Below the pieces are notes generated by a model. That model was not told where the DNA came from. It saw nothing but the letters and a program-made list of their open reading frames with translations, and made no database searches. A program made the position numbers and the translations under genes. Shown one piece after another: positions 5,740 to 49,432 of a DNA stretch of 49,582 nt; the first letter of the stretch is position 1, and each line of letters starts with the position of its first letter. This DNA comes from Asterionella formosa (lineage: Eukaryota). The stretch lies in NCBI GenBank assembly GCA_002256025.1, contig NKIB01013951.1, positions 1 through 49,582 on the forward strand. The letters run 5' to 3'.

Positions 5740-5888
5740 NNNNNNNNNNNNNNNNNNNNNNNNNNNNNNNNNNNNNNNNNNNNNNNNNNNNNNNNNNNNN
5801 NNNNNNNNNNNNNNNNNNNNNNNNNNNNNNNNNNNNNNNNNNNNNNNNNNNNNNNNNNNNNNNNNNNNNNNNNNNNNNNNNNNNNNNN
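5740..5888. other. Assembly gap (N run)
   Basis: Ns in sequence. Confidence 1.
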
Positions 5889-7607
5889 GCTCCAATGACT
5901 TTGGTGGCTTTCTGTTTTCTGCACTGTCTCTAGATACAGAAACAATTCCAAGGCTAGAGCCTGCACACTGATTGCAAATGAGCCTAAGACTGACGATCTT
6001 TGATTCATGATGGAGAAGCCAAAAAATCCTCTTGGCTCATCAAGATCAATAAGACAAGTTCTTGTAACTAAAGACCGTTGATAACAAATCTACTGATTCA
6101 GGAACACCTGAATTATCTTCTTCACAATCATCTGCTTCCAAGCCATCGACTTTGACTTCTCCTAATAAAGCTGTTGAACGCAGCCAGCAGTTTGAATGCC
6201 ATGGGATTGATGACTATCCAATCACATTTGATATATTGGATAGTGGACAATTGTTGGAAGTTAGGGCTTGTTTTCTAACTGTCCATTACAAGTTCTGTTA
6301 CAAAAATGAATAAATATCTTGTAAAAAAGGATAGATTTGGTGTCTCTTTTAAGATCTGCCTTTATTTGTCATCAGCCAATGCCAGGTACTCGAAAATAGA
6401 TATAAAGATATGCACAACAACATAATAATGCTTTTGTAATGAGTAAGAAGTTCAGGGGGGTAGTACTCTGGTAGCTTAGATGCAAAACTGGAAATATTAC
6501 TACTATGTAGTATGGCAAAAGAGCAACAAATCTGAAATCGAGATTTCAGAATTGGACTACATAACATGATGCTGGCAGTGGGGAGCATATCAATTTACTG
6601 CCTATTTGGGTAATTGCAACAATGATATTTATTCCATTACCTGTATATTACATAAAGATACCTACATACATCGCTATCTCTCGTCCTGTTTGCACATTGT
6701 CATTCAATTATTACCATTTACATCTAAGCCAAGTATTACATGAAGATCCTTTATGTAAATATGCATAGTTGATTTTGAGAGCAGGATCTTAGTTGGATTT
6801 TGAAATGAATTATTTAAACACCAACTAATTCAGCCTCAAGTTCAAAGTTCATCGTGAAAGCTTTACATGAAACCGTTAAAAGTAACCTTTTTTATGGGAA
6901 GTGTGGTATCATGAGGAAGTACCACATAATTATCAATCCTGCACTGATGAAATTTCGAAAAGTGGCGTGTTTCGCGGCTTAAATGTACTTCGCCTTTCGC
7001 TTTGATTGTTCCACCAAAACCTTGGAGATTTCAAGAGCAACAAAATGAACAATAGATCATGCTCGAGATTCCATATACCAATCATCACCTACTATTGCCT
7101 CCTTCAATTAGTTTATGTTAAATTTGTCCCACACAAACTTTCCATAAATTCAATGGTGTGGTATAGTGTGATTCACACCCTTGACTGGCGCATTCTTTGC
7201 GAGAGGATCCACCAAAAGAAGTTAATTGTCAAAATCAGACTTTTATAATTATCATCTTAGACAAAATATATATTTATAGTCTGTGTTTGACTACTACCAG
7301 GTACTGGTAGCTGGTACTCCAGGTAGTACAACAAGGTACCAGTACCTGGTAGCTGGTAAGTTGGTATTTACAATGATACATAATTGATTGTTGCGTTTTT
7401 GGTGATTCTATCAGCAACTAATATTTGCCAAGTCGCCGGGGGGTCATGTAACACATAATTGCTAATCGGGGGATGGAGGATGCAAAATTTAGTACATTTT
7501 GTAGCCCATTCGTAATCTTCTATTTCTATTGGCAAGTCACTAGTTTGTATGCACTTTTCGAACTAGTTGACACAAACCTGACCAAATTTTTTGTTTTCGA
7601 TTGAATG

Positions 7608-7741
7608 NNNNNNNNNNNNNNNNNNNNNNNNNNNNNNNNNNNNNNNNNNNNNNNNNNNNNNNNNNNNNNNNNNNNNNNNNNNNNNNNNNNNNNNNNNNNN
7701 NNNNNNNNNNNNNNNNNNNNNNNNNNNNNNNNNNNNNNNNN
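7608..7741. other. Assembly gap flanked by an identical 47-bp duplication (7561-7607 = 7742-7788)
   Basis: aactagttgacacaaacctgacc...ttgaatg lies on both sides of the Ns. Confidence 0.95.
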
Positions 7742-8531
7742 AACTAGTTGACACAAACCTGACCAAATTTTTTGTTTTCGATTGAATGCTCACTGGATCC
7801 AAATCGAGTTTCTCATTCCATGTGAATTCTTCTTCTTTCTCATGACAATACTTTGTTGAGCAAAACTCGACCAACATAAAAATGATTTTACATAATCTGT
7901 CAGCAAACCCCAAATCGATTATCGTTTTGCTTCCATGCATGTGAATTCTTCTTTTATTTTTATGGTAGATTTATTCAACAACTCAAAGCATGATGCTGGT
8001 CCTTGTTCATATAAGTCGATGCAAATCATAATATTTTTCTAGTTAATCTGTCAGCAGTCCTCTCAAACCAAATTTTACTTTCCATTTGAATTAGGTGTCT
8101 TCTTCATGATGATCGAATAACCTAATAGATCAAATCAGTATGTTTGTGCATTTGGACTATTTGGTGCCAATTAAATCTTAGCAGGCCCAAACCGCATTGT
8201 GATTTCGATCTGAATTGCCATTTGTTGTCATGATGCAAAATCATATCCAACAACACCTCGAAATAGCACCATATTGGTCCTGCTACTTCTTAGTCACAGG
8301 TGCATTGGGAACTATGTATAACCGGTCAACCGTACAAATTCATGTATGATTTCACACATTCATTTTTTGTAATGTGCTGACCCATTTCGACATCAAGTAT
8401 GGCATACGAACGGATTCTAGATTCCGTCCTGTGGTACTCTCGTGTGTAGAATTTATTGTATGTGATGCAGTCCCACTATCCCTACCTGTCAGATCAATCA
8501 AGCTATTACCGGTAGCTTTGTTTCTACATTG

Positions 8532-18367: not shown

Positions 18368-18676
18368 GAAAATGAAAATGAAAAAGTATGTACAAATGAA
18401 AGGACCGGTAACAGTAACATACCCGTACAAAAGTACATGGATCAAAATCATTACTGGCGTTATGTATGTAGAAAAATACACATGCATTCCGCTAAAGAAA
18501 CATGGTACTGTTTATACCTTTCAAAAAAATTACATGATTGTTCTTACTTACCGGTACCAGCAGGTAGTCTTGTGATGAGTACCGTAGAGCATCAGCTCTG
18601 TTCTTGGTTTCCCAGGTCATTCGCATGTTTTGATGTTGACTACCAGGTAGTTACTGGTAGTAAGTACCGGTCGACC

Positions 18677-26588: not shown

Positions 26589-27755
26589 ATGAATACGAAG
26601 ATATGTCTCCCCTTGATCCTCTCGTACGTGAGCGCAACGGCATTCGCTGCCCTAGCCATTCCTGTATTATTTGATGCCAGTAATAATTTGCATCGGGATC
26701 TCAGATATCACCCCGAGCAACCCGCGAGAATACAAAACTGTGTGGATGCCATACGCACATACATGGGAAGCACATGTGATATTCCTCCTATTGCTTTGAT
26801 GGATGTCTCAGATTCGTCGGAGAACCGATTCACGGAGGAAGAATTAGCCCATGCTAGAGCATGTCTTGTACTGGCCCATTCGGAAGATCTTGTCAGTGGC
26901 ATTGAACAACGCTGCATGAACTCTCGACAGAAACGCATCAATGACGGGAAGGAACCTCTTGGGTTTATAGGAAACGTCGATGATGATACGTTCCTGACAA
27001 CGGAAACGTACAATGTCTGCCTCCGAGCCACGGCGGCGTGGATACGATGCGTCGATCTTGCCATGAGTACACGTGGGTCTGCCATGGCACTGACGCGGCC
27101 TCCAGGACATCATGCTACATCCACTTTGATAAATGGTTTCTGCATCTTCAATTTTGCAGCCGCGGCTGTCATTCATGCTTTGCAAGGGGGTTCTGACATA
27201 AAAGTTTCGGTTCTGGATTGGGATGTTCATTATGGGCAAGGTGTTGTTGATATTCTCAAAAAGTACGATCGAGCTCGATACGTGTCCATTCATCAAACTC
27301 CAGCCTTTCCGTTCATGGGAGAATATCGCAAGGTGGATGGAGCATTCAAGAATATTCTCTCAATACCTATTCCACCTGAAACAACATGGACATGTGGATA
27401 TTCTAAAATGTTTCGGGAGCATGCTCTTCCCTTTGTCCGATTGACAAGTGGGGATGACCCCTGGGAGCCCGATCTGGTAATTGTGTGCTCTGGATATGAT
27501 GCGTTGGACAGTGATGAATTGGCGAGTGTCAGTTTGCAAGCTATAGATTATGGCCTCCTTACGTCAGAACTACTGTCGCACTTGTCGGTAGGAATCAACA
27601 AGCGTCCTGCATTGATGCTAGGTCTGGAGGGTGGTTATCAATTGAGCCCTATGGCAGTTGGAGGCAATCTGGGAGATGCCGTCGTTGAGACAATCAAGGC
27701 GCTGGTAAGGGAAGAAGCAGGTAGGGCTATACATTCACGCAAGAATGAGAAGTAG
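26589..27755 (+). CDS. Zn-dependent histone deacetylase family protein with signal peptide
   Basis: HPEQPARI, RPPGHHA, GFCIFN, DWDVHYGQG, SIHQ, SGYDA, LEGGY are all intact. N-terminus MNTKICLPLILSYVSATA-FAA. Confidence 0.92.
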   Translation: MNTKICLPLILSYVSATAFAALAIPVLFDASNNLHRDLRYHPEQPARIQNCVDAIRTYMGSTCDIPPIALMDVSDSSENRFTEEELAHARACLVLAHSEDLVSGIEQRCMNSRQKRINDGKEPLGFIGNVDDDTFLTTETYNVCLRATAAWIRCVDLAMSTRGSAMALTRPPGHHATSTLINGFCIFNFAAAAVIHALQGGSDIKVSVLDWDVHYGQGVVDILKKYDRARYVSIHQTPAFPFMGEYRKVDGAFKNILSIPIPPETTWTCGYSKMFREHALPFVRLTSGDDPWEPDLVIVCSGYDALDSDELASVSLQAIDYGLLTSELLSHLSVGINKRPALMLGLEGGYQLSPMAVGGNLGDAVVETIKALVREEAGRAIHSRKNEK

Positions 27756-28514
27756 GCTTATCATAATTGTGGGACCTTCATCAAGCAGCAAATGCGATGC
27801 ATCTTTATACATAGACACTGCACTACTTTGTCGCAATTTACATCAGGCCAGTTATCAATGCTGACTAGGTTATAGAATACTATGTTGATATTCTTCATCA
27901 ACTGGAATCAGCAGGAATCTACGCACTAGACAGCATGTTGACTTGATTCAATGAAACTTGAAAGTCCATCTGAGAAAAATATTATGATTCCATGTGCAAT
28001 CTGTAGCAGGTTATAGGTTTACTACTGTCAGAATATGATTGTTAGGCTGTTGCTGTTGACAAGTGCCTGAAGGCCAGATGAAGTCTGAGGAATGTCAGAA
28101 TGTAAATAAACACTGCATTGAAAAAACCCAAGCCAAATACAGTTGCAGGTTGCATTACACATCATGGTGTGTCACATTGGGAGAAAAAGCAAAAAATATT
28201 GTAGCCAGTGCATCCACCAAGACCAAATTGCTTTGGTCTTGGTAAACTATGACCTCCCAATTAACTTAAGCAATATCAGGTATTTGGTCTATCAGGCTCC
28301 AACCGTAGTCTAATAAAAGAAGCATTTCTATTGGTCTAGGTTATGGCTTCCATCAGAAACATATTTAATCTATGGTTTAATTAGGAGTGTACACATAATT
28401 AGAAAACATAAACAGTACTATCTTCATGTAGACAAATATGATCATCAGTAGACACAGTACATCAGTTTGATTTCGACACATACATACAGACATTATTTAT
28501 TCAACATCGTCAGG

Positions 28515-29170
28515 ATGGGTTCAGGTGTTACATGGGATAAGGACGAGGATAAGGCGGCGCTCTCTTGGTCCTGGGATGCAGCCAGTGATGACTCAATCAC
28601 TGGGATTGGTCAGTAAGCAAGAAGTTTTGGGGTCAGGTGTTTGAGATCTATGTAGGTGTCATCCCAGATGGCAAGAAACAGACGTCAACAGGGTGCGCAG
28701 CTCGATGAACAACAATAATAAAGACGTCACAAAGTTCTCCAGCGCAAGTAACAAGTATTCCAAAATCAGGATGGACAGAGGAGAAATACAATGAAGCAGC
28801 CAGCTATGGAGCATGCTATTTAAACTGGAAGGAAAAGGTCAAGAGCAGGGTAGAGAGTGCATTTTCAATTGGTGCTGGCGAATTTGAAGGAAGCCCCGAA
28901 GTGAAAGTTGTGTTGCAGTTATGTTTGGGTTCAACCAAAATCCAAGGTTGAGGATCTAAAGGATGGCCTGTTGTGTCCCATGGGGCAAAGGTCGCTAAGA
29001 ATGAAAAGCACATTGAAAATACTCAGCTTGCCAATGAGCAAAATCATGCAATGATGCTTGAAAGAAAGGTGAAAACTCAACATGATGAGTTCCTATTCCA
29101 ATCATCAAAGCAAAACGTTATTCGCCAGTATCTGATGGAGTTGATTTTTTTCGCATTCTTGCATTTTAGT
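28515..29170 (+). pseudogene. Decayed Myb/SANT (NAM-associated type) Harbinger accessory gene
   Basis: MGSGVTWDKDEDKAALSWSWDAASDDSITGIGQ*, then KDVTKF and HGAKVAK in other frames. Fits the W..ED..L..AW..S.D...G..Q pattern. Confidence 0.6.
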
Positions 29171-29177
29171 ACCTGGT

Positions 29178-31384
29178 GAGCAATCCCGCATATCAATATA
29201 GATGCATATAGGGCTACAGTTATATCATATATATCAGAACTCAATAATGAGAGAACTCGACTAACACCAATTGTATATTTTGGTGTCAACTAGGAGAACA
29301 AGTTGCATATCAAGATTAAATAATAAACTCATTTATTCAACAAATACTACTACTTCTAGTTAGATAGCTACTTCACTTTTGATTCAAAAAGAGTCCAATT
29401 AGAACAGGACAAACATGGCAAGAATTTATTCAAGGGGTTCCTCTCAATCCTTTGCTTGATCAAAGATTACAATGTATTGACTATTAAAACTAAAACTTTT
29501 CAAGTTTCTGAATCGCTCAACCAAGATGTGATTGATGGAAGCTCTGTGGGAGTGTTGTTAATCAGAGTGAGTCAATTTTGTGATGCGGCTAACACATGTG
29601 CTTTTAGACCTGCAGATAACTTTTCCCATTTCAGAAGGTGTTAGACCGACATTGCTTTATCGGATTGGTCAAATGTTGAAGTTCAACCAGAAGATCAATC
29701 CTATGATAGTTTCGATGAAGAAATGATTTTGTGGCTTGATGATTGTCTTCCAATCAATAGTTTTCAACGTCAATGTCAGTGGATGCTTCGCTATCTATAT
29801 AAGCCCTTTTCTATGTTGGTGATGGATTTCGCTGCTCGTTTTAAAATTAATCAGGCTACTCCAAATAATGCCTCATCCAGAAGATCAAAAGTGATTGTCG
29901 AAAGAAGACATGCACATCATCATTATCCGATTGATGCCCGATGAGTGGCAACAAGAATTTGAATTGAATCATGCCAATACTTTGGACCAAACAATTTGCT
30001 CGGTTCTTAATTACTTAGAGAATCAACATTCCTTTAAGGATCGAAACAAGCACCTTCCCAAGAACACTTTTCAGACTAGCGCATAAAATCGTCTTCGTAT
30101 TGCTGAAAGCAATCGTGTGATGCATCAAGAAACGAGGGCGTCAGTCGTCAGTTTTACCAAAATAATTGCAATCCAAGTGGTTGTGGATGGGCGCGTGCTA
30201 TTGTGAATGCGGCTGGTTGTGCATGGGATCGACAAGCGACCATCCATCATCAAGCTCTACAAGCCAGTGGTATCTACCACGATTATTGTGGCCCTTGCCC
30301 GGTACACCCTAAGTGTGCCAGTACTTGGGGCAATTGCTTCCAGAACCCTTGTTGTCTTACTCAAGGCGGTCGAGGAGGTTGTATGGCTGCTTGTCATAAT
30401 GGCCATGGACATTTCGGTTTTGGTGGTTATGGCAGTGGAGCACACAGTAACCCTACAGAAAGCTATCATACTGACACTGCTAAACCTGTGCCTGTTCCAC
30501 TTACTCATATGTTAAATGCATGGGGTTGTAATGATCACCCATCCGGCTGGGGTAACATGTCACATGCCGATCTTAACGAGACAATGTCTATCCAAGAAAT
30601 TTCAGTGGTCACAAACCCTCCTCCTGATCAGTTAGTGGCTTTTGTCTCTACTATACAACAGCAGAATGCTGATCACCATCACAGAGGTATGTGCGATAAT
30701 AGCAATGCTATTTATAATGACTCATTGAGCATGTCTCACGTCAGTCATCACCTGGATAATATTGTTTATTTACAGGTTGAATATACAATGGATACCGCTG
30801 TTGCTGTAACACGAGACATATATAAATGTATAGATGGACATGATGTTCCATATTTATACCAGGGTCTGATTCCAGTGTATTGATTTGATTCTGATGTCTC
30901 TATTAGCGCCACGATTGGTGGATGCTATCCTTATGCATAAAATTTGACAAGTACTATTTGATAGTGGAGGATCCCTTTAGTAATTTCCAGAGCATATTAG
31001 GATTCGATAAAAATAGGTACATCAAAATATAATAATAAAACATCATGTAAACCTTCTCAATCATCAAAAAATGTGAGAGGATGTATAGGAACAAGTTATC
31101 CATACAAGTCATGGTGCTATTTCCAAAATCAATGGTTAAACCAACTTGACGAAAGAAGTCACGTCCTAAAATTACATCAAATGTACATTGCTTGGCCATT
31201 GAAAACTTGGGGCATTTTGGTGGTAAAATACGAGCAGATCAATTAAATTCAGGGAATATTAGATCATATAAAATAACACTGGCATGAGATGAATAAGTAC
31301 CAGCTATGGTATTTATTAATTGGTATGTCTTGTTAGATAAAGAAATACCTTGAGGCATAACCTGTTCCTGTATTAAAGATGGAT
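29178..31384 (+). mobile_element. Decayed Ty3/Gypsy element: partial 5' LTR (29178-29375), gag, and protease with an inverted segment
   Basis: QCQWMLRYLYKPFSM...FAARF, MPDEWQQEF, CPVHPKCASTWGNCFQNP (gag); VLFDSGGS 30951-30974 on +; FDVILGRDF..VGLTIDF on the - strand. Confidence 0.8.
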
Positions 31385-31389
31385 AAAGT

Positions 31390-33050
31390 GGCAGGAGATT
31401 AGGAAAAAGCTTCGCAACAGTATCATTTGTACTAGTTCAAACATCGCCCAGGATTTGCATAAACTTCCAAGTGGACAAGGTTTGAAGGATGCATATTTCA
31501 AATTAGTCTGGAATATTTTCAAGCGAAGTTTCCAAAAGAAGAATCCAGTTTGTCAAATCATGACTTATGGAGTAGATCTACCTGGTCAATCAGCCAACAG
31601 ACTCGAAATCATGGTTGTTCTAAGCCCGCCCAATCATTGAGAATATAGGGACCCAACCTTGTGCTATTTGCTTACTTTAATGATTTTTCGGAATATACAA
31701 TTGGTTCCAGATGTGAAAGACAGTGATGTTGTAAATATTATAAGTCGACGAGAGATGCTGCAGGCAGATCGCAAAGAGAAGATGCATAGTAAGGAGCATG
31801 GAAGGAGCAGCAAACCAAAGCATCATCATGATAATGACTATTCATCACCAAGCAAACAGAAAACCCAACAATGATGGATATGTCAATGCTCAATTTTCAA
31901 GCAGCGCAAACTCGGAAGGGAAAAACTGATGAGATTTTTGCTTATCTTGATCTATACAGGAGATTCAAGCACATACTCCCTGAAGACAGATATCATGCAG
32001 ATGTTTTGAATTGTTTCGATAATCTACCTTCCCTACAAACTTATGATGTTGAGAGAAGAAGTGTTATTACTGGCAAAAGTGTTGTCAGCGCAACAAGTGT
32101 CTTTGGAAATGAACTCACTCCAACAAATACTACACCAATTCCCTCTTTTGTTTGTAATGATGAGCAAGAAAAAGATCAAGGTGCAGGACTTGGAGGGATT
32201 TGCATTGACTGCCAAGTCATCATAAACAGTGAACATCTTTGCATTGATTGCAACAAATTTGTCGGCTCCATTTGCTGTGATGGTTTTTGACATCACTCTC
32301 CAGAACATTTGTTGTTGTGGTACATACTTTTCTATGCACAGCTCCAATGTTCAGGAACAAATTGGGCTACATAAATACACATGAATATAGTTTACCATAT
32401 AGTGACATAATATATGTTAAGCTATCTTGCTAACTTACATCTTTTACTAACTTACTGCTTTTACAAAATTCTTCATAATGATCAACAAGTAGTTCAACTC
32501 TATTCCACTATTGGCTTTGTTTACCAGCAGCTTTTTCATTCAATTTGCTGTGTGAAGTAACATTCAATTCCATGCAGTCACCTCGCTAAGTATTGGCAGC
32601 ATCCTGTATGTAAGAACTTTCACAGTCAAGGTAACCATTGCTTTCTAATAGAATGTTATGGAGCATACAGCAGGACTTGAATACATTTTTGATATGCTTG
32701 GGTCAAGACAAGTTGTTCCAGTTCTTAAGAAATAACCATCAACTTTTCAATTTACCAAAAGTACATTAAAAATCTTTTCGAACAGACTCCACCATCATAA
32801 CCCATGCCCTTCCTTTTCCATGTTCATTCCACCAACATGTTGACTCCTGCCTTGACACCAGAGGTTGTTTCATTCCTTCATTTTGGAGTGAAAAGTCGCT
32901 CTTGGAGAGCAATACCTCGTTGTGAGAGTTCTGTTGGCCTGATTTGACAATCAAAGGCTTGCTTCTTGAGAAAAGCTGAAATTTCTATGTCTCTATCTCA
33001 TGTTTTAAAGTTTGCTCATGGCATCATCCATGTCATCAGGAGATGAGGAG
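31390..33050. mobile_element. Decayed PIF/Harbinger element: accessory ORF remnant (+, ~31390-32290) convergent with a DDE transposase remnant (-, ~33050-32470)
   Basis: The - strand reads ESVRKDF*CTFGKLKS*WLFLKN...NVFKSCCMLHNILLESNG, the Harbinger transposase C-terminal signature. Assignment of the + ORF is by position only. Confidence 0.75.
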
Positions 33051-33364
33051 CAAGAGGTAAGTCGACATGCTGGTCAGTGACTCACACTGGTGAAATTATG
33101 GAACTCATGTGGACAATGAACAAGAGGCTGTGTAACACACAAGAGGATGCATCGCTATGAAACTATAACTGTTATAAATTAAAGTTAAATTTATACAAAA
33201 TGTCAGATGACTAATCTATAATATCTTGATTATCAGAGCGCAATGACGTTATTATGTATCAAATCACCAATATAATTTGTATTATAATACACACATGATA
33301 TAATAGTTTTTTAATATCAGAGCGCCACTGATAGAAGTATCGACTACTATATCATCAGTAAATG

Positions 33365-33929
33365 TGATGATGATTACCTATATATTTTTCCGCTATTCTG
33401 ATTGGTGGAGACAACCTGAAGATTAATCTTCGGGAAGAAACGAAGATTGTTCAAGAAAATACGAAACAATAGGGTCAGGTTGTCGGGGATGACCCCCGAA
33501 ATATTCGGGCGAAGCAACGAATGCAGATTGATCTTCGTAATCGGGGGGGGGGATTTGCGAGTTATTTAGCCCGTAAGGGACGGAAATACGAAGATTAATT
33601 AAACGCCCAACACAGGTAGGGGCGACTCAATCTCCGTAATTCGGGCACCGTAAGACGGGGCTATAAAAGTGTGGCAGAGTGGTCGATCCCGCCCATCAAC
33701 ACAGCTGTAAATAGGGTTAGAGTTATATCATACATATCAGAACTTAATTAGAATAATGAGAGAACTCGACGAACACCTCTATTGTATACTTCGGTGTCAA
33801 CTACCGGTACGGTAAATAAACCAGTTGCACATCAAGATACCGGTAAAATAATAAACTCATATACCGGTATACCGTTTTATAGCTATGTTCAACAAATTGT
33901 ACTACCGGTAATTCTAGTAAGATACTTCA
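33365..33929 (+). mobile_element. Solo LTR related to the Gypsy LTR at 29178-29375
   Basis: 33680-33929 aligns with 29178-29375 and both end in CTTCA. TATAAAA at 33662. The TG start near 33363-33365 is inferred; no clear TSD. Confidence 0.7.
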
Positions 33930-34932
33930 CCTGGTACTAGGTACCATAGTCTTCTCCACCGTATGTTCGTCACGAAGGACAAAATACAAGAGAGTCAGTT
34001 AAATGTCGCGACCGTCCGCCAGGTTACTTGTTCCGCTTCTCTTGTTCGACTCCCAACCAGCCCTGTGCATTACTAACTATCCTGGATGGTCGTCATCTTT
34101 GCTATGTACTCCCTCCTTCGTATCACCCAAACAAGTTCCTTGATAGAGTCGGATGGTTTTCCAATTTATATCTACGTACGTACTACGTGTTCTCATCTTT
34201 GTATGTGTTGATCATGTACACAGGCACTCAGGTAGACCTCGTGCAGGTACCTGGTAGGGTTAGTTATCAGGTCCTGGTACCAGCTGCCAGATATCCTTGA
34301 ACGCACGGTGGTGAATACATTGACGACAAAGTAGTTACAGGTAATACCGGTAAAAATATAAACAGCAAGTTGCTGTAATTTTGTCGAACTAAGGAGTTAG
34401 CTATCTTTATCCCAGATTAAATTGTTTATTTAAGCAAAATGACGCAACTTGCAGGTGCCAGGGTACCAGATACCAGTTACCAGTACCTGGTACCATTGGT
34501 TAGATGAGGAGTAGGACAGGAGTACCGGTACCTGTGCTGGAGCTTCGTACCCGTACCTGATTCACTCAGCCAGCGTTACCTGTCACATTTGTCTCAAGAC
34601 CATTAGAAAACATCAACTGGTGGTGGGACAGTGTCCCCTGGTTGCCCAAAAATTTGCAAATTGCTCACTTCCCAGTTCTTTTCGGAGGTTTGTCCATAAC
34701 TTCCTACCGACAACTGGGAACATGCTTGGGTTGTTCGTTTGTTGCGATCTTTTGTTTGCTTTTATGTGTGTATCAATTACTCAACCTACATAAGAAAAAG
34801 AATGCTGGGGGAAATGTGAATATTTCCTGAAAGCATGCATAAATTATCCATCTGAATACCGTACTGATTAAATCTTTCCTAATAGGTTTTCAAGCTCTTT
34901 GCTGTTTTCCCTATCGATAGAATCTGGTCATC

Positions 34933-36752
34933 ATGTCAAACCCGACCAGCTTTGAAACTTGCTCCGCCTTGTATAATGTCCAGAGCGATCAGGCAGGGTT
35001 CCTCAACTGTAGTGCGGTCGCTGCGCAGGCAGTAAGTGAAAACAATCGAGTGTGTTTCAGCCGTTGAAGTGACTGTACAATCTGACAGTTCCTTGATGCT
35101 TCGCTCCCTTTCAATTTAGGCTGTTATCGCTGCAAATGAAGATCTTTCCGGTGGTCTTAACCAATTCTTTTTGATCTTTGGGGTAAGTCAATTGAGATGC
35201 TTATCTTGAAACCCGCTGGGGCACTGACAGTCGACGCTAACCGTCTAGTCCGTTTCAGGGAGCTCTCGTCTTTTTCATGCAAATTGGCTTTGCCATGTTG
35301 TGTGCTGGATCGATCCGGGCCAAGAACGTCAGGAATGTGATGTTGTGGAACCTTTTGGATTCCGCTGGTGGTGGAATCTCCTATTACTGTGTTGGTTATG
35401 CTTTTGCCTATGGCAGTGATGGCAATGATACCGTGAAGACTTTTGTCGGAACATCCCAATTCTTTCTCGCTGGAAGCGATATCAACTACTCGTTTTTCTT
35501 CTTTCAATGGGCCTTTGCAAGTGCTCTATCTTCGATAGTGGCTGGAACAATCGCAGAGAGGACTAAGATGATCGCCTATCTGGGATACTCCACATTTTTG
35601 GTTGGATTCGTCTATCCGGTGGTAAGCCTACTTATTATAGTGTCATGACTTGAGTGACCAGGTAACTCGACTAATTTTACCATTCCTCTTTCTTTCAATG
35701 TGCAGGTTTCCCATGCATTCTGGTCGACCCAGGGATTTCTAGGCATTTTTGCTGCGGAACCGCTATGGGGTGCGGGTGCTATTGACCTTGCCGGATCTGG
35801 TCCAGTTCACTTGACTGGTGGAGTCGCCGCCCTTGCTGCAGCCCTTATTCTAGGTCCCCGTTTGGGACGCTTCTATGATCGCGATGGAAATGTATTGGAT
35901 CCACCTGCTGAAATTCCACCACATTCCGTCGCTCTCCAATTCCTCGGAACGTTTGCCCTCTGGTTCGGCTGGTATGGATTCAACCCCGCTTCCGTCCTTG
36001 CGACTAACACCACCGAGCTTGGTACTGTTGTATCTCTTGTCGCTGTAAATACGACTCTTTCCGCATGCGCTGGGGCACTGTCTGCCCTGTTCACCTCTAC
36101 ACTCTTTGATTACTGGTCTACTGGTATTCACACCTACGACGCAGTCTATACCATGAATGGTTGCCTCACCGGTTTGGTCGCCATCACTGGTGGATGCGCT
36201 TCCGTCCAACCCTGGGCTGCTATTATCATTGGAGTGATTGCCGGATGGGGCTACTTGGGAATGAGTAAGCTCTTGATCAAGTGGAAGATTGATGATGCTG
36301 TGGATGCCATTCCTGTCCACATGATTGGTGGAACTTGGGGAGTTCTTGCAACCGGACTTTTTTCTGCCCCTACTCTCTTGAAGAGTGCCTACGGCATTGA
36401 CACACATGTTGGTTGGTTCTATTCGTTTGCTCGAGGCAGTGGTGACTTCACGTTGCTTGGCTGTCAGTTGGTGAGCATCGTTTTTATCTATGCATGGACA
36501 TTTTCCACCATGGGAGCGTTTTTCTTGGGTATGAAATACATGGGTCAACTCCGAGTTGATGAATTGGAGGAGGAGGTTGGTATGGATATCAGTCGCCACA
36601 AGGGATCTGCCTACGAGGTCGGTGACAGCAGTGCTGCCCACAGCGACGCTGTTGACAGGCTTAACATGAGCCGCAGTGGCCGAGTGGTCAAGATTGACGG
36701 ACCCAGTAAGGAGGAAGAGGCCGTTTTGTCGGTTGAGGAAGTTACTGCCTAG
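34933..36752 (+). CDS. AMT1: Ammonium transporter, AMT1 type, 4 exons (34933-35031, 35120-35182, 35259-35621, 35706-36752)
   Basis: LVFFMQIGFAMLCAGSIRAKN, FFFQWAFA...GTIAER, DLAGSGPVH, LWFGWYGFN, IDDAVDAIPVH. Three phase-0 GT-AG introns keep the frame. Confidence 0.95.
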
Positions 36753-37330: not shown

Positions 37331-37967
37331 GATGGTGTCGTATACCTGTATCTACTATGTAGAAGTACTCGTTGCTCAATATTTTTGTCAGTGTGCCTAT
37401 TTTAGATAAGCTATGAGCGAAATAGCAAGCAGTGCCAGTTGCTCGTCTTTGTTATTCGTGTTCCGTATGAAAAGTGTGATTATTGTACCGGTCGCACAAG
37501 GCATGGTACCAGTACTACCTGTTACGGTGGTTGAAATACCCGGTACCTGGTACCAGGTACTCCTTCCTGCCTGGTGGTAAGCACGTTGATGGTCAATGTC
37601 CACTGCCTTGGTACCAGGGTACCCGTACCAGGTACCTGGTATCAGTAAAATGATGGGAGTACATACCGGTATGAATCCTTTTCGTAATCATCATGTGGCT
37701 ACATACTGCTGGTATCATCGTAACCGGTACTTCAATGTGTCACTACAGTACTTGGATCTCGACTTCGTTTGCCCTCATCCGCCCAATCGAAAGAGTCTTC
37801 TCCTTTTGCGTTGTTGCAATACGGATAGTCTTCACTAGCTACTCAAGTCTGATATAGAGGGAAACCATGAACGTTTAGTGAAGGGAAACGTAAAACTTCC
37901 ATCTTGATTACCTGGTACTCTACTACCACTCAAGTAAAAGTAACTCTGTCCCAACAATACATTGAAC

Positions 37968-40882: not shown

Positions 40883-41518
40883 TTAGTCATGAACCTCCAA
40901 GCCGATGAATCCAACAATTCCCTTCTTCTTCATTTTAGCGAAACCACCAACAGAATTGTCAATCAATGATTCTGTATTTTTCATGTAAAATCCAGATGGA
41001 TCCGGAAGACCGACAAAGCCAATATTCTTTTCAATGTCGTCAGGCATGTCGACTTTTCCGGCCACAACCACCACTTCGTCTCCTTTCATATAGGCCCACT
41101 CTAGAGTATCCTTGGCAAATATCTGTAGAGGAAATAGCCGTCGAGCGTGCTCTGAAATCAGGAGACGCTGCCGAATGACAGCAGCCTCCGTGTAGGCGTT
41201 ATCCTTGGTTCGAACCGTTCCCACCTGCAACCACTCATCAGCCGGAGGATCACTAACCACTCGCACGGCCACGACGAAGGTCTCCGCAGTCTTGAGGTCT
41301 AGATAACGATCCCATTGTTGTTTCGGCTTTAACTTGCTATCGCTCTTTTTCTTGTCGTTCTTGGCAGCGCCAAAGCCAGACATGAAAAGACGAGACGACG
41401 AGGAAGCAAATGTTGCATGTCGCTGCACGAGGTTGGCGCCTCCAACGAGTGGTGGCGCTGTCAAGAACGCTTCCGCTGATGCTGCGACCAAAAGTAACAG
41501 ACATGTAATTCGCTGCAT
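40883..41518 (-). CDS. Hypothetical plastid-targeted protein
   Basis: Signal peptide MQRITCLLLLVAASAEA-FLT followed by a Ser/Arg-rich transit peptide (SSSSRLFMSGFG). Confidence 0.8.
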   Translation of the reverse strand: MQRITCLLLLVAASAEAFLTAPPLVGGANLVQRHATFASSSSRLFMSGFGAAKNDKKKSDSKLKPKQQWDRYLDLKTAETFVVAVRVVSDPPADEWLQVGTVRTKDNAYTEAAVIRQRLLISEHARRLFPLQIFAKDTLEWAYMKGDEVVVVAGKVDMPDDIEKNIGFVGLPDPSGFYMKNTESLIDNSVGGFAKMKKKGIVGFIGLEVHD

Positions 41519-41728: not shown

Positions 41729-44700
41729 TGTCAGAATTGGATATTTGGTTTTGAATCAAATATACCGCCATCATTACCTGTACCACCATCACTTCCAGTC
41801 TATAATATATAGCTCACAATTTCTAATAAATACTTTAGGAATTAGTCGTCATTACAAACCTTCCGCTTCTACAAGTTAGAACAACCTCAAGAGTCTACTT
41901 CATCCAGCCTCATTGCAAGAGCTGTTGACAGTAATATTCATCTATAACAAGTGGTTATGAGCCTAACATTATAAGAAAATAAATAAAGCTTCCATTAGAT
42001 TACAAGATCAATGACCATGTCTAATCCAGTAAATCTTCCAAACGTTCCCCCACAGAGAGGAGGTATTCATACCACATATGGCATCTTCATTGGAGGTGCT
42101 CAACTTGATGACACTTACCACCTTCTACCAAACCGAAGCACTTATAGATTCTCAATGCAACATTGTCAAGAAAAAACGATTGCTTCCATTGAACAGAAGC
42201 TCAGAGATGCACGCGATTCTGTAACCACTGTCAAGTTCAATGGACAACTTGAAGCAACTGCTGGACTGTCTACTGAGATAGGAAAAGGAAAATTCATCAG
42301 TATGTTGAAAGAAAAGGTGAAAGAGCATGCCCAACAAACCTTCTATGCATTCAAGGACAATGATGGAACAGTCGTTGACCTATTCAAACACTCTCATCCT
42401 TAAAATTTGTCACTGTTGTGGATGAGTTTGCTCGTCGCGCAGATACAACCAATATTGACTTCCAAGCCTTTGATCAGTATGAGTTAGAACATGTTGAATT
42501 GTCACACATGCTCGTGTTTTCTCAAGGAATTACCTTGACCTTGTTCTGTGAGAAAATGGAAATCAGATTTGACCATCGAGTCGATTTTGAGTACCTCTCC
42601 GGTGCTTTTCTATTCATGATGGCCTTAGAAACCTGCAATGCATCCATCTCCCATGATGTCGAAGGGGCACGCAACCAACTTGATGGCCTCACTCTTGACT
42701 CCTATCCGGGTGAAAATGTGACGGATTTTACCACTGAAGCACATCGTCTTATCAAAATCATGCAAGGTGACTACGCATTGCCTGTCAATACTGGTTCCAA
42801 ATTGATTCAGAAGGTCACAAAAACTTCGTGTGAGTACTTCAATCGTAAAATGTACACCCTCCTTGATGAAGTCAAAACACTTGAGCATGAGTACAACCTG
42901 TCCGATCCTAAGACACTCACCAAGGACCCCAAAAAAAGTTTGGCCCACTGGGAGTCATTGCAATTTTGCAAGCAGCTCATGGAGCTCTTCTATCTGAACT
43001 TGATTGGCCTGCTCTGGCAACCAAACTCCCAGAAGCCAATCTCTCGATGAACACCAGTGCAAACACCCGCACTTGCTATCGCTGTGGAAGTGGTGATCAT
43101 CTCTCTCGCGACTGTCCCCAACCTCCTGCTTGCATATCCAACACTTGTAAACATTCTGCTGCTCTGGCTGATTGGAAATACATCAAGCCAGATAACCTTA
43201 CTACAACCAAAACTGATGACCTTGGACGAGTTTGGAAATTCTGCACAAAGTAAAAGTATCGGGCCTCCAACAAGATTGGATTTTATCAGCTTAGTCACTT
43301 GGACTTGGCTCACCTTGATAACTATCGTGCCGGTCAGCGAGCTGCCACAACCAAACAACCTGCCAGCTCCCTTTTGGACACCACCAATGGTCCCACATCG
43401 CACAAAACTGCTCCACTCCACCAGACACTCCACAGAGTAATATTTCAGCAGTTGCCAACCCTAACCCCATTCCTGCCGGTCCTCCTGATATCACTACCCC
43501 TACTCCTTCCACAACTACCACTGAACCACTGGACGATATGACCTTTACTAGGGCATGGTGTGCTCCTGTTATCCATCCACTTGATGTCGACCTGTCAGTT
43601 TGCGGATACACTCCTACTCCAGCTAGTACCTTCAGTGAGAGCGAAACAAACGTGAACACTTCTGTCATTGAGAGGGAGAATAAAAATAACATGATTGTGT
43701 GTGAGACACATACAAATCTGGAGTGCAACAACAACAATGACATTGCTGGGGAGGACCTGAAACTGCCAAGTGACTCGATCCAGTCAACATACCTTATCAT
43801 GAAAATCCTATTTTGGTTTAGTGCAATATTCTGGGATACAGTGGCATACTTTATCCTTTCTTCCCCATCTGATAATCCTGCGTGCACACTGCGCCGATTC
43901 AAACAGAAGAATATTCCTGTACCTTTCATTTTTGCACCAGCGTCATGGATGCTATTGACACATTCCATTCTACTTTTGCCTGGGATATTTTATGGTCACA
44001 AGAATCTTCCAACCTTCCACACTGTCAAGGATCTTGTCAACACTCAATCGGCTGCTATGTATGACAGAATCACACAACTTGAAATGATGATTGACCTTGA
44101 TTGGACGGCTCTTTGGAACTTCAACCACATAAAATGGAAAAGTATTCACAATGATCTCAACCCATGTGTTCTTGAATCCACATCTGTGAAAGCCTCAACA
44201 CCCAAGACACCATATGATCCATTTCACTTTCACGACCTCTGTGCTACCCGCCACTGTGTTGACTGCATACATGACTCAAATGCAACTGTGTTAGCAAATA
44301 CCAAGGAGGATCCAACATGCAACCAATCAACAACTCAAGTTATGGATGTTCTTACCGATATCGATATCTTAGCACATGACCCGTACTCTTTGTTCACAAT
44401 GGCAAACACAACGTCCGCAGTAATCTTCGATACAGGAGCATCATTGGGAATTACACATGACATACAAGACTTTGATGGGCCACTTACGATTCCAGACTGT
44501 GATCTTCGACTTGGGGGTATGGCCAACGGATTGAAAATAGAGGGAGTTGGACCAGTTACATGGACATTCAGCAACAAAGGCGGCACAGAAGTGCAGATTC
44601 GCAACCAATGATACTATGTCCCTCAATCCAAAATGAGACTGATTAGTCCACAACGTCTGTTCAATAAAGAAAAAGGAGTAAGTGGATGGTACAAGGGTGA

Positions 44701-47700
44701 TGAAAGAATCATTCAGGCTTCAATTCGATGTGTGTCCTTGTCTGATTGCTTGTTGAGTATGAACCCAGAAATCACCTCCCAATTGGGCAAGCCAGGATTG
44801 GATCGGGACTGTTCTGCAGGTGAACTTTGCCTTAACCAACGAGGGTAATCAAAACATTAGTTCTGGTCAAAAACTTCTTTTAAACTGGCATTTTCGTTTT
44901 GGACACTTAAAATTACCAGCAGTTCAACGAATACTGCGTGCATTCCCATTCACCGCCAATCGATTCGCCTCAGCATCCAAATGCAATGCATTTGACCTAA
45001 AATGCGAGATCTGTCAATACTCTAAAGGACACCGTCGTCCAACACATTCTTCCACAATCATCGCAAATCCTGAACGAACTGGCGCACTGAAGGCTGAAAA
45101 TCTTGGACCTGGTGTTAGAGTTTCCGTTGATCACTTCGAATCTCGTCTTTTAGGACGCACCTTTGACTCCTTTGGAAAACCATCAGCAGACACCTACAAA
45201 GGGGGCTGCATATTTGTGGATCATGGCACCGGATACATTCAGGTGGAGCACCAATTGGGATTCTCTGCTGTTGAAACCATCAGAGCAAAACAAAACTATG
45301 AGCAACAGGCAATGGACAATGGTGTCATTTTACAATCCTACCTCACTGACAGTGGAGCATTCAAGGCAAACTCTTTTGTTCAACACATTCGAGAACATAC
45401 TCAGCGTCTTCAATACTGTGGAACAAATGCACACCATCAAAATGGTGTAGCAGAATGGGCTATTAGAACAGTATCTGACATGGCACGCTCAATGATTCTC
45501 CATGCTTCCAGTCATTGGAAAGGAGGGATCGACAGCACACTTTGGCCTATGGCAGTTACTTACGCTGTGCACCTTTACAACAATCATACACCAAATAATC
45601 AATTCCTTTGCCCAGCTGATCTCTACCCTGGAAGCACAATTCCCAGACATCGACTGTGAGATCTTCACACTTGGGGGTGTCCAGTGTATGCTCTTGACCC
45701 AACTCTTCAGTCTGGGAAGAAATTGCCTAGGTGGCAACCACAATCACGACGATTTGTGTTCCTTGGATTGAGATCCATTCACTCCAGCGAAGTCCCCGTC
45801 TGCCAATAAAAACCATCATAATTCCATGATGCATCATGGGATTATGATCATCTGATCATAATTTTTCGTTATATCATCTAATAATTTTGATAAATGCCCT
45901 CGTAATTTATATAGTAACCCTTTTGACTATGGAAATTTGATTATTATATGTATTGTTTCTTTTAGTTTCCTTTATTTAAATTTCTTGGTAGGATGATGTA
46001 CCAGTTAGAGTAATGTGGTTTGGCTCATCAGCCCCTTGGTCCTTAATTTGCAAACTGGGAGTATTACCACTCAATATCATGTGGTTTTTGACGACGGTTT
46101 CTCCATGGTGGCGTCAATTGGAAAAGATGAAGACCCTCCTGAATACTGGGACGATTTGTGTCTGGAAAATACAACCTACATACCGAACGATTCAAACACT
46201 GAAACACCAATGCATCTTCAAGACGACTGGCTCACTTCAGATGAACAAGCACAAAAGCGGAGGGAGCTGCATCGACAACAGTGGATTCGTACCACATTTT
46301 CCCCCACACACTCCATTACGGCAGCTTCACCACCTGAAGGACCATCAACACCAGCAGAACAAAATATCGGCATGTTAGAGGGAGCATCTGCTCCAATACC
46401 TCCTCCTAAAACACCTGTTCCACTCAGCACTGATAGTGCCCTCACAAAACACATACCAGATTCTATTGCAATTAATCCTATTGCAAGTTCACCCCACTCT
46501 TCACCACCAGTGCCAGCAGTTCGACGATCTGAAAGAACAAATAAGGGTCAGTATAATCGTACAAAATATATTGACGAAGTATATTTGACCATGCTGGATC
46601 AAACCAAGCATGACAATTTCAACAAGAAGCAACTGGCATATTCAGCAGAATTACTTACCTGTTTTGACACAGGTGTTCACAACAATACTGACCCTAAACA
46701 CGCCGCAAAGATGACCCTGATTCTCTAACGTTTCATCAGGCTATTCATGGCAAAAATTGAGAAGAGTACATTAAAGCCATGCAAATAGAGATTGCAACAC
46801 TCATTCTTCAATGTACCTGGGAATCTGTGCCAAGAACTGCAAACCTCAATGTATTAAAAGGTACATGGGTATTCAAACTGAAACGGCTCCCAGACGGCAC
46901 ACCTTATCGCTTCAAAGCACGCTATTGTGCAAGGGGAGATCTCCAAAAGGAGGGCATTGACTTCTTCGAGACCTATTCACCTGATGTTCTTTGGTCTACC
47001 ATCCGCTTGCTATTATTAACTGTTCTCACTGAGGGCTAGTCAACCGTCAAATCGACTACACCAACGCATTTGCTCAAGCCGATCTCAAAGAAGAAGTATA
47101 TCTGGAATACCCTCGCATGTTTGGACCCAAGTCCGGCACCAATAAAGTGTTGCGACTGGTAACAAGGCTATATGAACTTCGTCAAGCTCCTCGCACCTTC
47201 TTTGAGAAGATTCGGGAGGGAATTTTGGAACGTGGGTACACTCAATCTCAAATTGATCCATGCTTGTTCATGAAACAAGGAATTATTTGTGTCTGCTATG
47301 TCGATGACACCATATTTGCTGGAGCGGAATCATTTGTTCTTGAAGCTGAAATCCAAAGCCTTGGCGTCCATGAAAAGTAACAGAGTCAAACTTTTGCACT
47401 TAGAAATGAAGGGGAAGTTGGTGCCTTTCTTGGAATTCAAATTTTAAATACTGGACTGCAGGAATATAATCTCACTCAAACCGGACTAATTGACAAAGTC
47501 CTTGCAGCAACTGGCATGTCTGATTGTAATGGAGTGGATACACCATCGACTACTACTCCATCAGGAATCGATTTCGATGGAGATCCGTTCACTGAAACCT
47601 GGCAATACAATTCAATCATTGGCATGCTGATGTTCCTGTCTGCGAATACCCGCCCAGATATTGCTTATGCTGTTCATCAAGCCGCTAGATTCTCCCATGC

Positions 47701-48357
47701 CCCACGTCATTCTCACACTATTGCCGGTTGCCGCATTCTTCGCTATTTGCAGCAAACAAAAACCATGGGGCTTCTGTTGAAGCCAACAAATACACAAAGG
47801 GTGGATTGTTATGTCGATGCCGATTTTGCAGGTCTTTTTGCTGTTGAAAATAATCAAGATCCCATTTCAGTCAAGTCCCGCACTGGCTATGTTGTGCTGT
47901 ACAAAGGGAGCCCTCTCCTCTGGGTATCCAAGGTGCAGACTCAGATTGTTGCCTTGAGTACCATGGAGGCCGAATATGTGGCTCTTTCTCAGGCGATGCG
48001 CGACCTCATTCCAATTCGTGAAATACTCAAAGAATTTATGGCCGTTGTATTCGAAATTCAACCAAGTATTGCATATCATGCGCATTTCAAATCGTTCACA
48101 GATGTTGCGGAGGGTACTGTTCCTTATCATGCCATCGATCAATCAATTCTCTATGAGGATAACCATTCTTGTCTAAAATTTGCATGCATGGCACAACTAT
48201 CTCCTCACACCAAACACATCGGCATTCCATATCACTGGCTTCGCACGAATTGTCAACCTTGATATCCATATCGAACCTATTAACACCAAAGACCAGCTTG
48301 CCGATCAGTTCACCAAAGGTCTTTGCACTGTCAAATTTCAGGCTGCTTGGCTGCTTC
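41729..48357 (+). mobile_element. Near full-length but inactivated Ty1/Copia (CoDi-like) retrotransposon, 3' LTR missing
   Basis: LTR-like sequence ends ...ATAACA at 41949, then PBS-like GGTTATGAGCC 41953-41963. gag from 42011; CCHC CYRCGSGDHLSRDC; protease VIFDTGAS; integrase WHFRFGH..CEIC, VSVDH, TDSGAF, HHQNGVAE; RT YVDD; RNase H YVDADFAG, QLADQFTKGL. Many stops and frameshifts. The 5' boundary is approximate. Confidence 0.93.
45798..46031. mobile_element. 234-bp AT-rich insertion in the Copia integrase region, flanked by a CCCC duplication
   Basis: Removing 45798-46035 restores GAA GTC CCC TTG GTC CTT AAT (SEVP-LVLNL). CCCC occurs at 45794-45797 and 46032-46035. Confidence 0.8.
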
Positions 48358-48495: not shown

Positions 48496-48886
48496 TAATT
48501 TATTCGGGTTAAACAAAAATTTATTTCCTTAATCGAATAATTATGTGTGTTCGTGACAATATATGTTGACCAACTAGCCATCGCGACAGTAAAAAAGCGA
48601 AATTATGCTGCTCCGCCACAATATTATGCTGCTTTCACCATATAATGAACGAAAGAGTCGCCAATTCCGATTCACTATTATTTTTTCCGCTCCGACATAT
48701 TTCTTTGATCTGAACTGGCAAAGAATAACACATGCAAGAGGAAGATTCACACAGTAGAATTCAGCACACGTAGTAGTGGTTGATGTTGTAGACACATTGT
48801 TTAGTCATTGTTGATTGTAGAGATTACAATAGCCTGCCAGATTAGAAATAAAGCACCGTTGGTACTTGTTGAGCATCGTTGAGCAT

Positions 48887-49432
48887 TGCATGTCTCCGTA
48901 GTGAGTCGAAATTGAGATGTGCCACAATGGCCTTCTCTGTTTCAGAGCAGTTACAATAGTCTACAGCGATAACTCTAACAAGTACAACATAGAAAAATAA
49001 TTAAAGGATGAGTAGCTGCCTGTCAACGATTGACTTTGTAAATTCGTTAAGAAACAGCTGTTGCATATTACAACATTCAATGCGTGTCGCTGTAGTGAGT
49101 AAAAATTGAGATGTGCCGCAATGGCCTTCTCCTATTCGGAGCATCTACAAAAAGTCTACAGCGATAACTCTAGCAAGTACAATATAGAAAAGAAAGCAAA
49201 GGATGAGTAGCTGTCAACGATTGAATTCGTAAATTCGTTTAGAAACAGCTGTTGCATATTTTAACATTTAATGCATGTTGCCGTATTGCTTCGAAATTGA
49301 GATTTGCCGCAATGGCATCCTTCTTTTTGGAGCAGCTACAAATACTCGAAAGAGCGATAACTCTAGCAAGTACAATATAGAAAAAGAAGGAAAGAATGAG
49401 TTGCTGTCAACAATTGAATTAGTAAATCAGTA
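48887..49432. repeat. About three tandem diverged ~192-bp units
   Basis: Units start at 48887, 49081 and 49272; shared AAATTGAGAT.TGCC.CAATGGC...AGCGATAACTCTA.CAAGTACAA.ATAGAAAA...CTGTCAAC.ATTGA. Confidence 0.92.

Follow-up and report, generated by a model that had tools for sequence, protein, structure and literature searches.

Four copies of the palindrome TACCGGTA lie in one of the two long terminal repeats (LTRs) of a degraded, putative Ty3/gypsy element, and sequence comparison with the partner LTR and with other copies of the family indicates that they are very probably derived insertions, made in place. The same palindrome and a relative with one additional central base recur upstream of genes throughout the 49,582 nt of DNA that we analysed (the window).

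The window is gene-dense nuclear DNA with long open reading frames (ORFs). The products predicted from Pfam and ORF analysis include PPR, SGF29, Noc2, histone deacetylase, ammonium transporter, Whirly and HHL1-like proteins. For Noc2, a 99% match is known from assemblies only, and the closest named relatives are from diatoms, at about 50-54% identity. Positions 26600-36500 are present in 20 public sequencing runs from 15 studies, and the labels of these runs are mostly freshwater or lake metagenome. We take the source to be a freshwater diatom. The end of the window contains a degenerate Copia-type element (42379-48300) with zf-CCHC, gag_pre-integrs and RVT_2 domains, the RVT_2 domain being spread over three frames. 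This element has zero motif units and is followed at 48884-49427 by about 2.8 tandem copies of a ~194-bp unit. Runs of N occur at 5740-5888 and 7608-7741, and the second run is flanked by an identical 47-bp repeat (7561-7607 and 7742-7788) that looks like an assembly gap artefact.

An LTR pair and the insertions in its 3' copy

The putative element, the insertions found in its 3' LTR and the ammonium transporter gene are arranged as follows.

29172..29176, + strand: left target-site duplication CCTGG, with TA before it (29170-29171); the pentamer is repeated after the 3' LTR
29177..29375, + strand: copy A, the 5' LTR, 199 bp, with TG..CA ends and no TACCGGTA unit
29376..33679, + strand: degraded element interior; family interiors match 29376-31380 only, with 30981-31380 inverted; no Pfam domain
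33680..33929, + strand: copy B, the 3' LTR, 250 bp, with the purine-rich tract of the family (gtgtggcagag) just before it
33802..33812, + strand: B-only insertion 1, 11 nt, one TACCGGTA with part of another unit (CGG+TA); A and 14 of 14 other copies lack it
33838..33843, + strand: B-only insertion 2, 6 nt, yielding the TACCGGTA at 33838-33845
33864..33887, + strand: B-only insertion 3, 24 nt in which CCGGTA is joined by a partial TACCG and by 13 nt of filler, yielding the TACCGGTA at 33862-33869
33906..33911, + strand: B-only insertion 4, 6 nt, yielding the TACCGGTA at 33903-33910
33930..33934, + strand: target-site duplication CCTGG on the right, with TA after it; the empty site is reconstructed as TACCTGGTA
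35241..36752, + strand: ammonium transporter gene, in two ORFs; Pfam Ammonium_transp, positions 7-399

Copies A and B are alignable, and they are the only LTR copies found within the window. Identity is 80% over the first 70 nt (29176-29245 against 33679-33748), 74% over the 178 columns of the BLAST match with gaps counted, and 85% across ungapped LTR columns. The initial annotation had described B as aligning with a paralogue that lacks its four TACCGGTA octamers. The alignment was reproduced and the octamers were confirmed in B only, at the positions given, but the start assigned to the other copy (29178) has to be moved to 29177. The two copies are better described as the 5' LTR (A) and the 3' LTR (B) of a single degraded Ty3/gypsy element. 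We assign them to a single insertion because they share the CCTGG duplication and group as sisters in a FastTree tree (support 0.92). The LTRs of one element are identical at integration, and therefore every difference between A and B arose later. For this reason, the LTR pair is a cleaner and stricter natural experiment than a pair of paralogues. Since that time, B has accumulated more change than A, with branch lengths of 0.131 and 0.079 substitutions per site, respectively.

Several features are consistent with this assignment. The LTR family repeat starts with TG and ends with CA, and the window element has the direct repeats, TG..CA ends and 4-6 bp target-site duplication of a Ty3/gypsy element. 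Family 3' LTRs are preceded by internal sequence ending in the purine tract GGGAGAG, and the corresponding tract in the window is GGCAGAG. Copy A is taken to be the 5' LTR because its upstream flank is unrelated to the family interior. One family member (L001:198-3782, reverse strand) contains a single 1194-aa ORF with RVP, RVT_1, RT_RNaseH and Integrase_H2C2 domains, which is the Ty3/gypsy order. The window interior itself is degraded: none of its 17 ORFs has a relevant Pfam match, its 3' half (31381-33666) matches none of the family interiors retrieved, and metagenome contigs show a joint between 30974 and 31380 on opposite strands. The reconstructed empty site, ..tagTACCTGGTActagGTACC.., is itself a motif site, and no empty-site joint for the element was present among the best 15 of 207 joints listed for the metagenome contigs. 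The DNA to the left of the element (28084-29171) is moderately repeated, at 9-30x single-copy depth in run X1, and so the TACCTGGTA site may have received more than one mobile element.

The octamers of B (33802-33809, 33838-33845, 33862-33869 and 33903-33910) all fall within 109 bp, with CGGTA after the first and TACCG after the third. Copy A reads caac/TAgg, aaga/TTAaat, cattTA/ttc and acTAc/ttc at the four points, the slash marking the position of each insertion. Altogether, B has six private insertions. Four bear the motif (11, 6, 24 and 6 nt), two of them exceeding one clean unit, and the remaining two are motif-free (AATTAG at 33746-33751 and CT at 33777-33778). A metagenome collection was scanned with a 19-base word common to A and B, which identified 23 loci, and 15 of these are family members, including two from one contig. 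The resulting alignment contains A, B and 17 pieces. Fourteen distinct records span all four sites, with ten in one subfamily (five of them identical) and four in a second. All four inserted segments are missing from each of these 14 copies and from A, which argues that the units are derived in B and were gained there. The initial annotation had proposed just such a multi-copy alignment to establish polarity, and the result upholds its view that the units were gained after insertion and in B: the family, in either subfamily, does not already carry CCGGTA units.

Sequencing depth also bears on where the gain took place. In run X1, the likely source, one contig covers 33812-34425 with 0 differences at a depth of 877. 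Single-copy bins in this run have depths of ~840-1000 and TE bins range from 7.6x10^3 to 6.8x10^5, and the rest of the LTR family is ~100-800x deeper than the unit-bearing contig. The unit-bearing part of B thus has single-copy depth and is continuous with unique DNA, which argues that the gain happened in place and that the units are not a trait of a multi-copy LTR variant. In two other studies, too, contigs run through B and on into unique sequence: the X6 contig (33635-34429) shows 20 other letters plus 20 gap letters, and for the X8 contig (33748-34273) the respective counts are 14 and 20. B is therefore no assembly artefact. It is very unlikely that B descended from, or was converted by, a unit-bearing LTR variant, or that the other copies lost their units. 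Such a history would be in keeping with the A/B identity of just 85%, with the unmatched 3' half of the interior and with the preference of the family for CCWGG targets, which makes an identical duplication less improbable than 1 in 1024. However, A and all 14 copies from two subfamilies lack the units, so loss would need several independent exact deletions per lineage, and the single-copy state of the unit-bearing part of B and the sister grouping of A and B both argue against this account.

The net gain per unit is 6 nt, CCGG and one TA, beside an ancestral TA, and hence one TA of each octamer must be ancestral. Insertions 1 and 3 are reproduced exactly if an ancestral TA is duplicated around CCGG; insertions 2 and 4 each call for an additional substitution. 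The claim that the units were gained at TA sites therefore holds exactly for two of the four and with an extra substitution for the others. Because TA makes up 14% of the junctions in A, the alignment alone lends modest support to TA sites, and the stronger argument comes from the genome-wide TA flanks of CCGG and CCWGG sites described below.

No unit was gained in the 5' LTR or in the other 4.5 kb of the element. If unit-bearing insertions were uniform on the 4753-bp element, the probability of all four landing in the 250 bp of B would be 8x10^-6, and 1.5x10^-4 once the first is placed there. This improbable clustering, in what is a single case, suggests that something local favours B, either open DNA near the upstream region or hopping from a neighbour. 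B was initially annotated as promoter-proximal. It does abut the upstream region of the transporter gene, but the term is loose, as the end of B is at least 1.3 kb before the Pfam domain of the transporter, which begins at ~35259. All four octamers are perfect on a branch of 0.131 (P = 0.043 for 24 unchanged inserted bases), indicating that they arrived late or were kept by selection.

Head-to-tail slippage, as in micro- and minisatellites, does not describe the B units, which are solitary and 24-41 bp apart. Slippage expansion is also disfavoured by the lack of any unit at the B sites in A and the 14 copies, and by chains elsewhere that mix CCGG, CCAGG and CCTGG. The TACCAGGTA found in one family interior (L002:922) was discarded as evidence of insertion; other copies read GCATCAGGTA at this point, so the sequence arose there by substitution and is uninformative on insertion.

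TA-flanked palindromes across the window

The octamer TACCGGTA occurs 27 times in the window compared to 0.26 expected. Chance can be discounted: 0 of 100 dinucleotide shuffles gave as many as 27, and the expectation from a second-order Markov model is 0.45. The 9-base word TACCWGGTA is found 31 times, and the two words are about 60-100x above expectation. Spacing between the half-sites TACC and GGTA is 0 nt at 27 sites and 1 nt at 37 sites (T 18, A 13, C 3, G 3), and spacers of 2-6 nt account for 11 sites in all. TA is present on both sides of 27 of the 95 CCGG sites and 31 of the 106 CCWGG sites, and the next flank pair reaches only 3. TACGGTA and TACCGTA were seen 11 times versus 3.9 expected. 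Variants of TACCGGTA with one mismatch number 37 versus 12.3 expected; this excess is about equal to the 27 perfect sites and fits continuing birth and neutral decay.

The 64 units are grouped into ~24 clusters, and in about ten chains the neighbouring units share a TA exactly (TA-X-TA-X-TA), with W being A or T in either order. Examples of such chains are TACCTGGTACCAGGTA and TACCTGGTACCTGGTACCGGTA. The 27 TACCGGTA sites have nearly random flanking bases. An apparent bias (G at +4 in 21/54 and T at +3 in 22/54), which we take to resemble the Tc1 target consensus, was not significant when 40 tests were allowed for and was set aside. The half-sites of TACCWGGTA have C as the next base in 48 of 62 cases and a second C in 39 of 62. 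The 9-base form is therefore really GGTACCWGGTACC, mostly in arrays, and these non-random flanks indicate that at least this variant is more than a scar at an arbitrary TA.

Most units (56/64) are in non-coding DNA outside TEs, at a density of 3.34 per kb versus 0.21 in coding and 0.31 in TE DNA. The only TE-located units are the four in B; elsewhere in the window, 13 kb of TE DNA has 0. Units are present in all nine of the tabulated gene-upstream spacers and in none of the four convergent 3'-3' spacers, with a median distance of 310 bp to the next start codon. This is the upstream enrichment expected of a cis-regulatory site. One exception is the gene at 40883-41518, which has no unit in its upstream region. 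The motif is also found in host flanks from related species, with four sites in locus L005, three in L020 and two in L023. We found no literature report of this motif in diatoms, as judged from titles and abstracts, and a 'palindromic motif' from T. oceanica proved to be ACACGTGC, which is unrelated.

Other short sequences are associated with the units. At 18549-18566, TACCGGTA is directly followed by CCAGCAGGTA. The sequence TAC-CAG-CAG-GTA, a single case, has the form expected if a TACCWGGTA site had kept a CWG duplication. Unrelated stretches of 15-139 bp are bracketed by inverted repeats that bear the motif (14643-14658/14798-14813, 37536-37553/37625-37642, 15227-15245/15329-15347 and 7294-7352). 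In one pair, TGGGGAGTACCTGGTA / TAACAGGTACTCCCCA, the repeat reaches past the motif. These inverted repeats may be remnants or ends of small mobile elements. In addition, GGAGTAC/GTACTCC occurs 18 times, often next to units.

One motif array differs in length between populations.

37619..37624, + strand: six letters, one TA+CCCG unit in the motif array; missing from contigs of all four runs compared

This one-unit difference was seen among the best 12 of 379 indel entries. The X3 contig that lacks the unit has a depth of 31.7, equal to that of the orthologous 5169-nt contig, and the two are presumably the same. Between 26200 and 40300, gap letters between populations concentrate at motif clusters. 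Among the contigs listed, with TE paralogue contigs left out, 5-24 gap letters were counted in six of the seven non-source contigs that cover clusters and 0-2 in the ten without clusters. General intergenic variability may explain part of this concentration. The active insertional process invoked in the initial annotation is thus borne out as to insertion; for ongoing activity, the evidence is the one 6-nt difference at 37619.

Mobile elements were also found at the motif. The Ty3/gypsy family provided five independent host junctions: TA-CCTGG in the window (29170-29178 and 33928-33936), gtaCCAGG (L019:~170-182), TACCTGGTA-CAAGG (L020:~893-912), CCAGG-TACCAGGTA (L023, reverse strand, at the 3' junction of the LTR) and caaCTTGG (L005, reverse strand), the last being inside a Copia RT with no motif. 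Three of the five junctions are in TA-flanked CCWGG and a fourth adjoins a motif. In X1, the consensus just past the LTR terminus is CCTGG (121 contig ends), and one contig each in X1 and X3 joins the LTR end to an array via CCCGG. These sequences suggest a Ty3/gypsy integrase, or a tether, with specificity for the motif centre. A short repeat at 34362-34455, present at ~300x single-copy depth, has terminal inverted repeats of ~20 nt (C[A/T]GCAAGTTGC.GT.ATTTTG) and CAG on both sides. Its other copies end ..GCAACTTGC-(A/T)GG-TA-(C/T) (211, 69, 112 and 105 contig ends in four runs) and share TATAAA upstream of the inverted repeat, which makes the left limit at 34362 provisional. This repeat is either a MITE with a CWG duplication in TACCWGGTA or else a TA-duplicating element whose tips are CCWG.

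Possible origins of the units

We tentatively favour the possibility, which we rate a little short of probable, that a TA-targeting, cut-and-paste transposon like Tc1/mariner left the units behind as footprints of its excision. A Tc1/mariner-like element would duplicate TA upon insertion, and end-joining after excision would leave the two TAs separated by a short stretch of the transposon's terminal bases. Tips of CCGG would produce self-complementary overhangs and a uniform TA-CCGG-TA scar, and CCWGG tips would pair except at the centre to give TA-CC(A/T)GG-TA. Resolution of the CCWGG tips to A or T would account for the preference for W over S, which is 31 to 6. If open promoter DNA were preferred and the element hopped locally, then clusters, partial units and filler would result, as well as the TA-sharing chains, which would form by reinsertion into a scar's own TA. 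The partial units (CGGTA and TACCG) and the 13 nt of filler in B look like the products of imprecise joining. The near-random flanks of TACCGGTA are those expected for insertion at an arbitrary TA. Moreover, a duplicated TA around fixed bases with a net gain is found exactly at two of the four B insertions, and 27 of the 95 CCGG sites have TA on either side.

Some observations argue against footprints. Four or five cycles of insertion and excision in 110 bp is a high local rate, and only two of the four B insertions fit TA duplication without an extra substitution. No DNA transposase was detected by Pfam in 64 window ORFs, with the low-GC and TE parts included. The window and 14 related loci contained no TA-flanked elements with CC..GG tips and 12/14 matching terminal bases, and the scan for such tips returned motif arrays that match each other only. 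Pairs of half-sites (TACCGG ... CCGGTA) were also inspected by eye as element ends and had no terminal inverted repeats. Because these searches covered only ~50 kb of the genome, the missing donor is weak evidence. The even spread of units over gene-upstream spacers could equally mean that they are a selected promoter element.

The last possibility is one that we take seriously while judging it improbable. The palindromes would be a putative functional promoter element for a dimeric factor, with half-sites TACC/GGTA at a spacing of 0 or 1. They would have been written at TA (6-7 nt) by another process, or co-opted from footprints, and then selected, and B would have acquired its units on becoming part of the transporter's upstream region. 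The restriction of units to upstream rather than 3'-3' spacers and their closeness to start codons support this idea, as do the motifs in the host flanks of related species and the perfect octamers on the long B branch. The Ty3/gypsy family also hits the motif centre or its neighbourhood at four of five junctions, as if these sites were marked. However, selection accounts for the retention of units and not for their birth as 6-nt insertions instead of point changes. The one-mismatch excess, at about the number of perfect sites, looks like neutral decay, and the gene at 40883-41518 has its upstream region free of units.

The birth of units by insertion could also be ascribed to templated insertions during double-strand-break repair (polymerase-theta-type end joining) or to slippage, with nearby units copied via TA microhomology and no transposon. 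The clusters and TA-sharing chains are in line with copying of this type, and so are the partial units and filler in B, the one-unit length difference within the array at 37619 and the gap letters in cluster-covering contigs. We nevertheless regard templated copying as rather unlikely. Beyond B, one has to go ~440 bp, to 34345, to reach another TACCGGTA, and the motif next to B is a CCTGG one, so the first unit in B was without a close template. The 13-nt filler of insertion 3 likewise has no convincing local template: its matches are one 9-mer on the opposite strand ~200 bp away, for which we estimate a chance expectation of ~0.2, and a 10-mer at 14487, and neither is beyond chance. Solitary TACCGGTA sites with random flanks dominate in the window, and slippage cannot make a unit where none existed.

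Significance and relation to known systems

Diatom promoters are poorly understood. The LTR pair provides a dated before-and-after comparison, in which a genome-wide, promoter-associated palindrome of a diatom arises through 6-nt insertions rather than through substitution or inheritance. Should the units prove to be transposon scars, they would be an unusually clear example of cut-and-paste transposition remodelling almost all promoters of a genome, and scar counts in LTR pairs of known age versus gene distance would offer a ready assay. If the units are bound by a factor, they would represent a new general diatom promoter element and a candidate landing pad for targeted integration. It is unlikely, though conceivable, that these properties combine and that the TA-flanked palindromes are a self-spreading minimal promoter element. 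In such a scheme, 4-5 bases and a duplicated TA would be written into open DNA by a transposase-like activity or as scars, and the general promoter factor that binds them would also guide the Ty3/gypsy integrase and the MITE. Transposon scars would then be the main promoter vocabulary of a diatom lineage, and regulatory sites would be born by insertion, not point mutation.

Transposon scars are already known, and so are over-represented palindromes and promoter-targeted LTR integration. In titles and abstracts, we found no diatom genome whose dominant upstream word is a TA-flanked CCGG/CCWGG palindrome, no dated LTR pair showing such a motif born by insertion and no Ty3/gypsy family landing in the centre of such a motif.

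The closest parallels are with Tc1/mariner scars. The Minos scar is 6 bp, consisting of four terminal bases and TA. Sleeping Beauty excision leaves TA-C(A/T)G-TA (PMC2874221), and Stowaway MITEs and mariner elements leave a small duplication plus a short end sequence (PMC4561436). Like the scars of Sleeping Beauty, Tc1, Tc3 and Stowaway, the diatom units have a duplicated TA around a few fixed palindromic bases with an A/T centre; a handful of bases is gained at a former TA, and imprecise variants occur. Unlike Tc1/mariner, there is no donor or transposase in the DNA searched, the units are promoter-confined and also present in related species, and the 9-base variant has non-random flanks. Moreover, we know of no genome with scars as dense as 3.3 per kb of upstream DNA.

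HIP1 (GCGATCGC) is an 8-base palindrome of cyanobacteria. Its core is methyltransferase-like, and its genome-wide excess is one to two orders of magnitude. Its copies are mostly genic, and substitution bias is their proposed origin. The diatom octamer resembles HIP1 as an 8-base palindrome in genome-wide excess of this order, and its core is likewise methyltransferase-like. In contrast to the bacterial, largely genic HIP1, the diatom units are promoter-bound and arise by insertion.

The target of Harbinger3_DR is palindromic and centred on CCWGG. NuwaI of the PIF/Harbinger superfamily has CWG duplications and a CWG target inside a palindrome (PMC4482050). The repeat at 34362-34455 is similar, being CAG-bounded and having other copies that end in ..GCAACTTGC-WGG-TA. 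This likeness concerns a neighbouring repeat and not the B units, however, and it leaves CCGG arising de novo at TA unexplained.

LTR integration is targeted at promoter-bound factors by Tf1, with Sap1, in fission yeast and by Ty3 at Pol III starts. The present case differs in that the 5-bp duplication is the palindrome centre itself. As with Tf1 and Ty3, the putative Ty3/gypsy-type element described here lands at a specific promoter-associated sequence.
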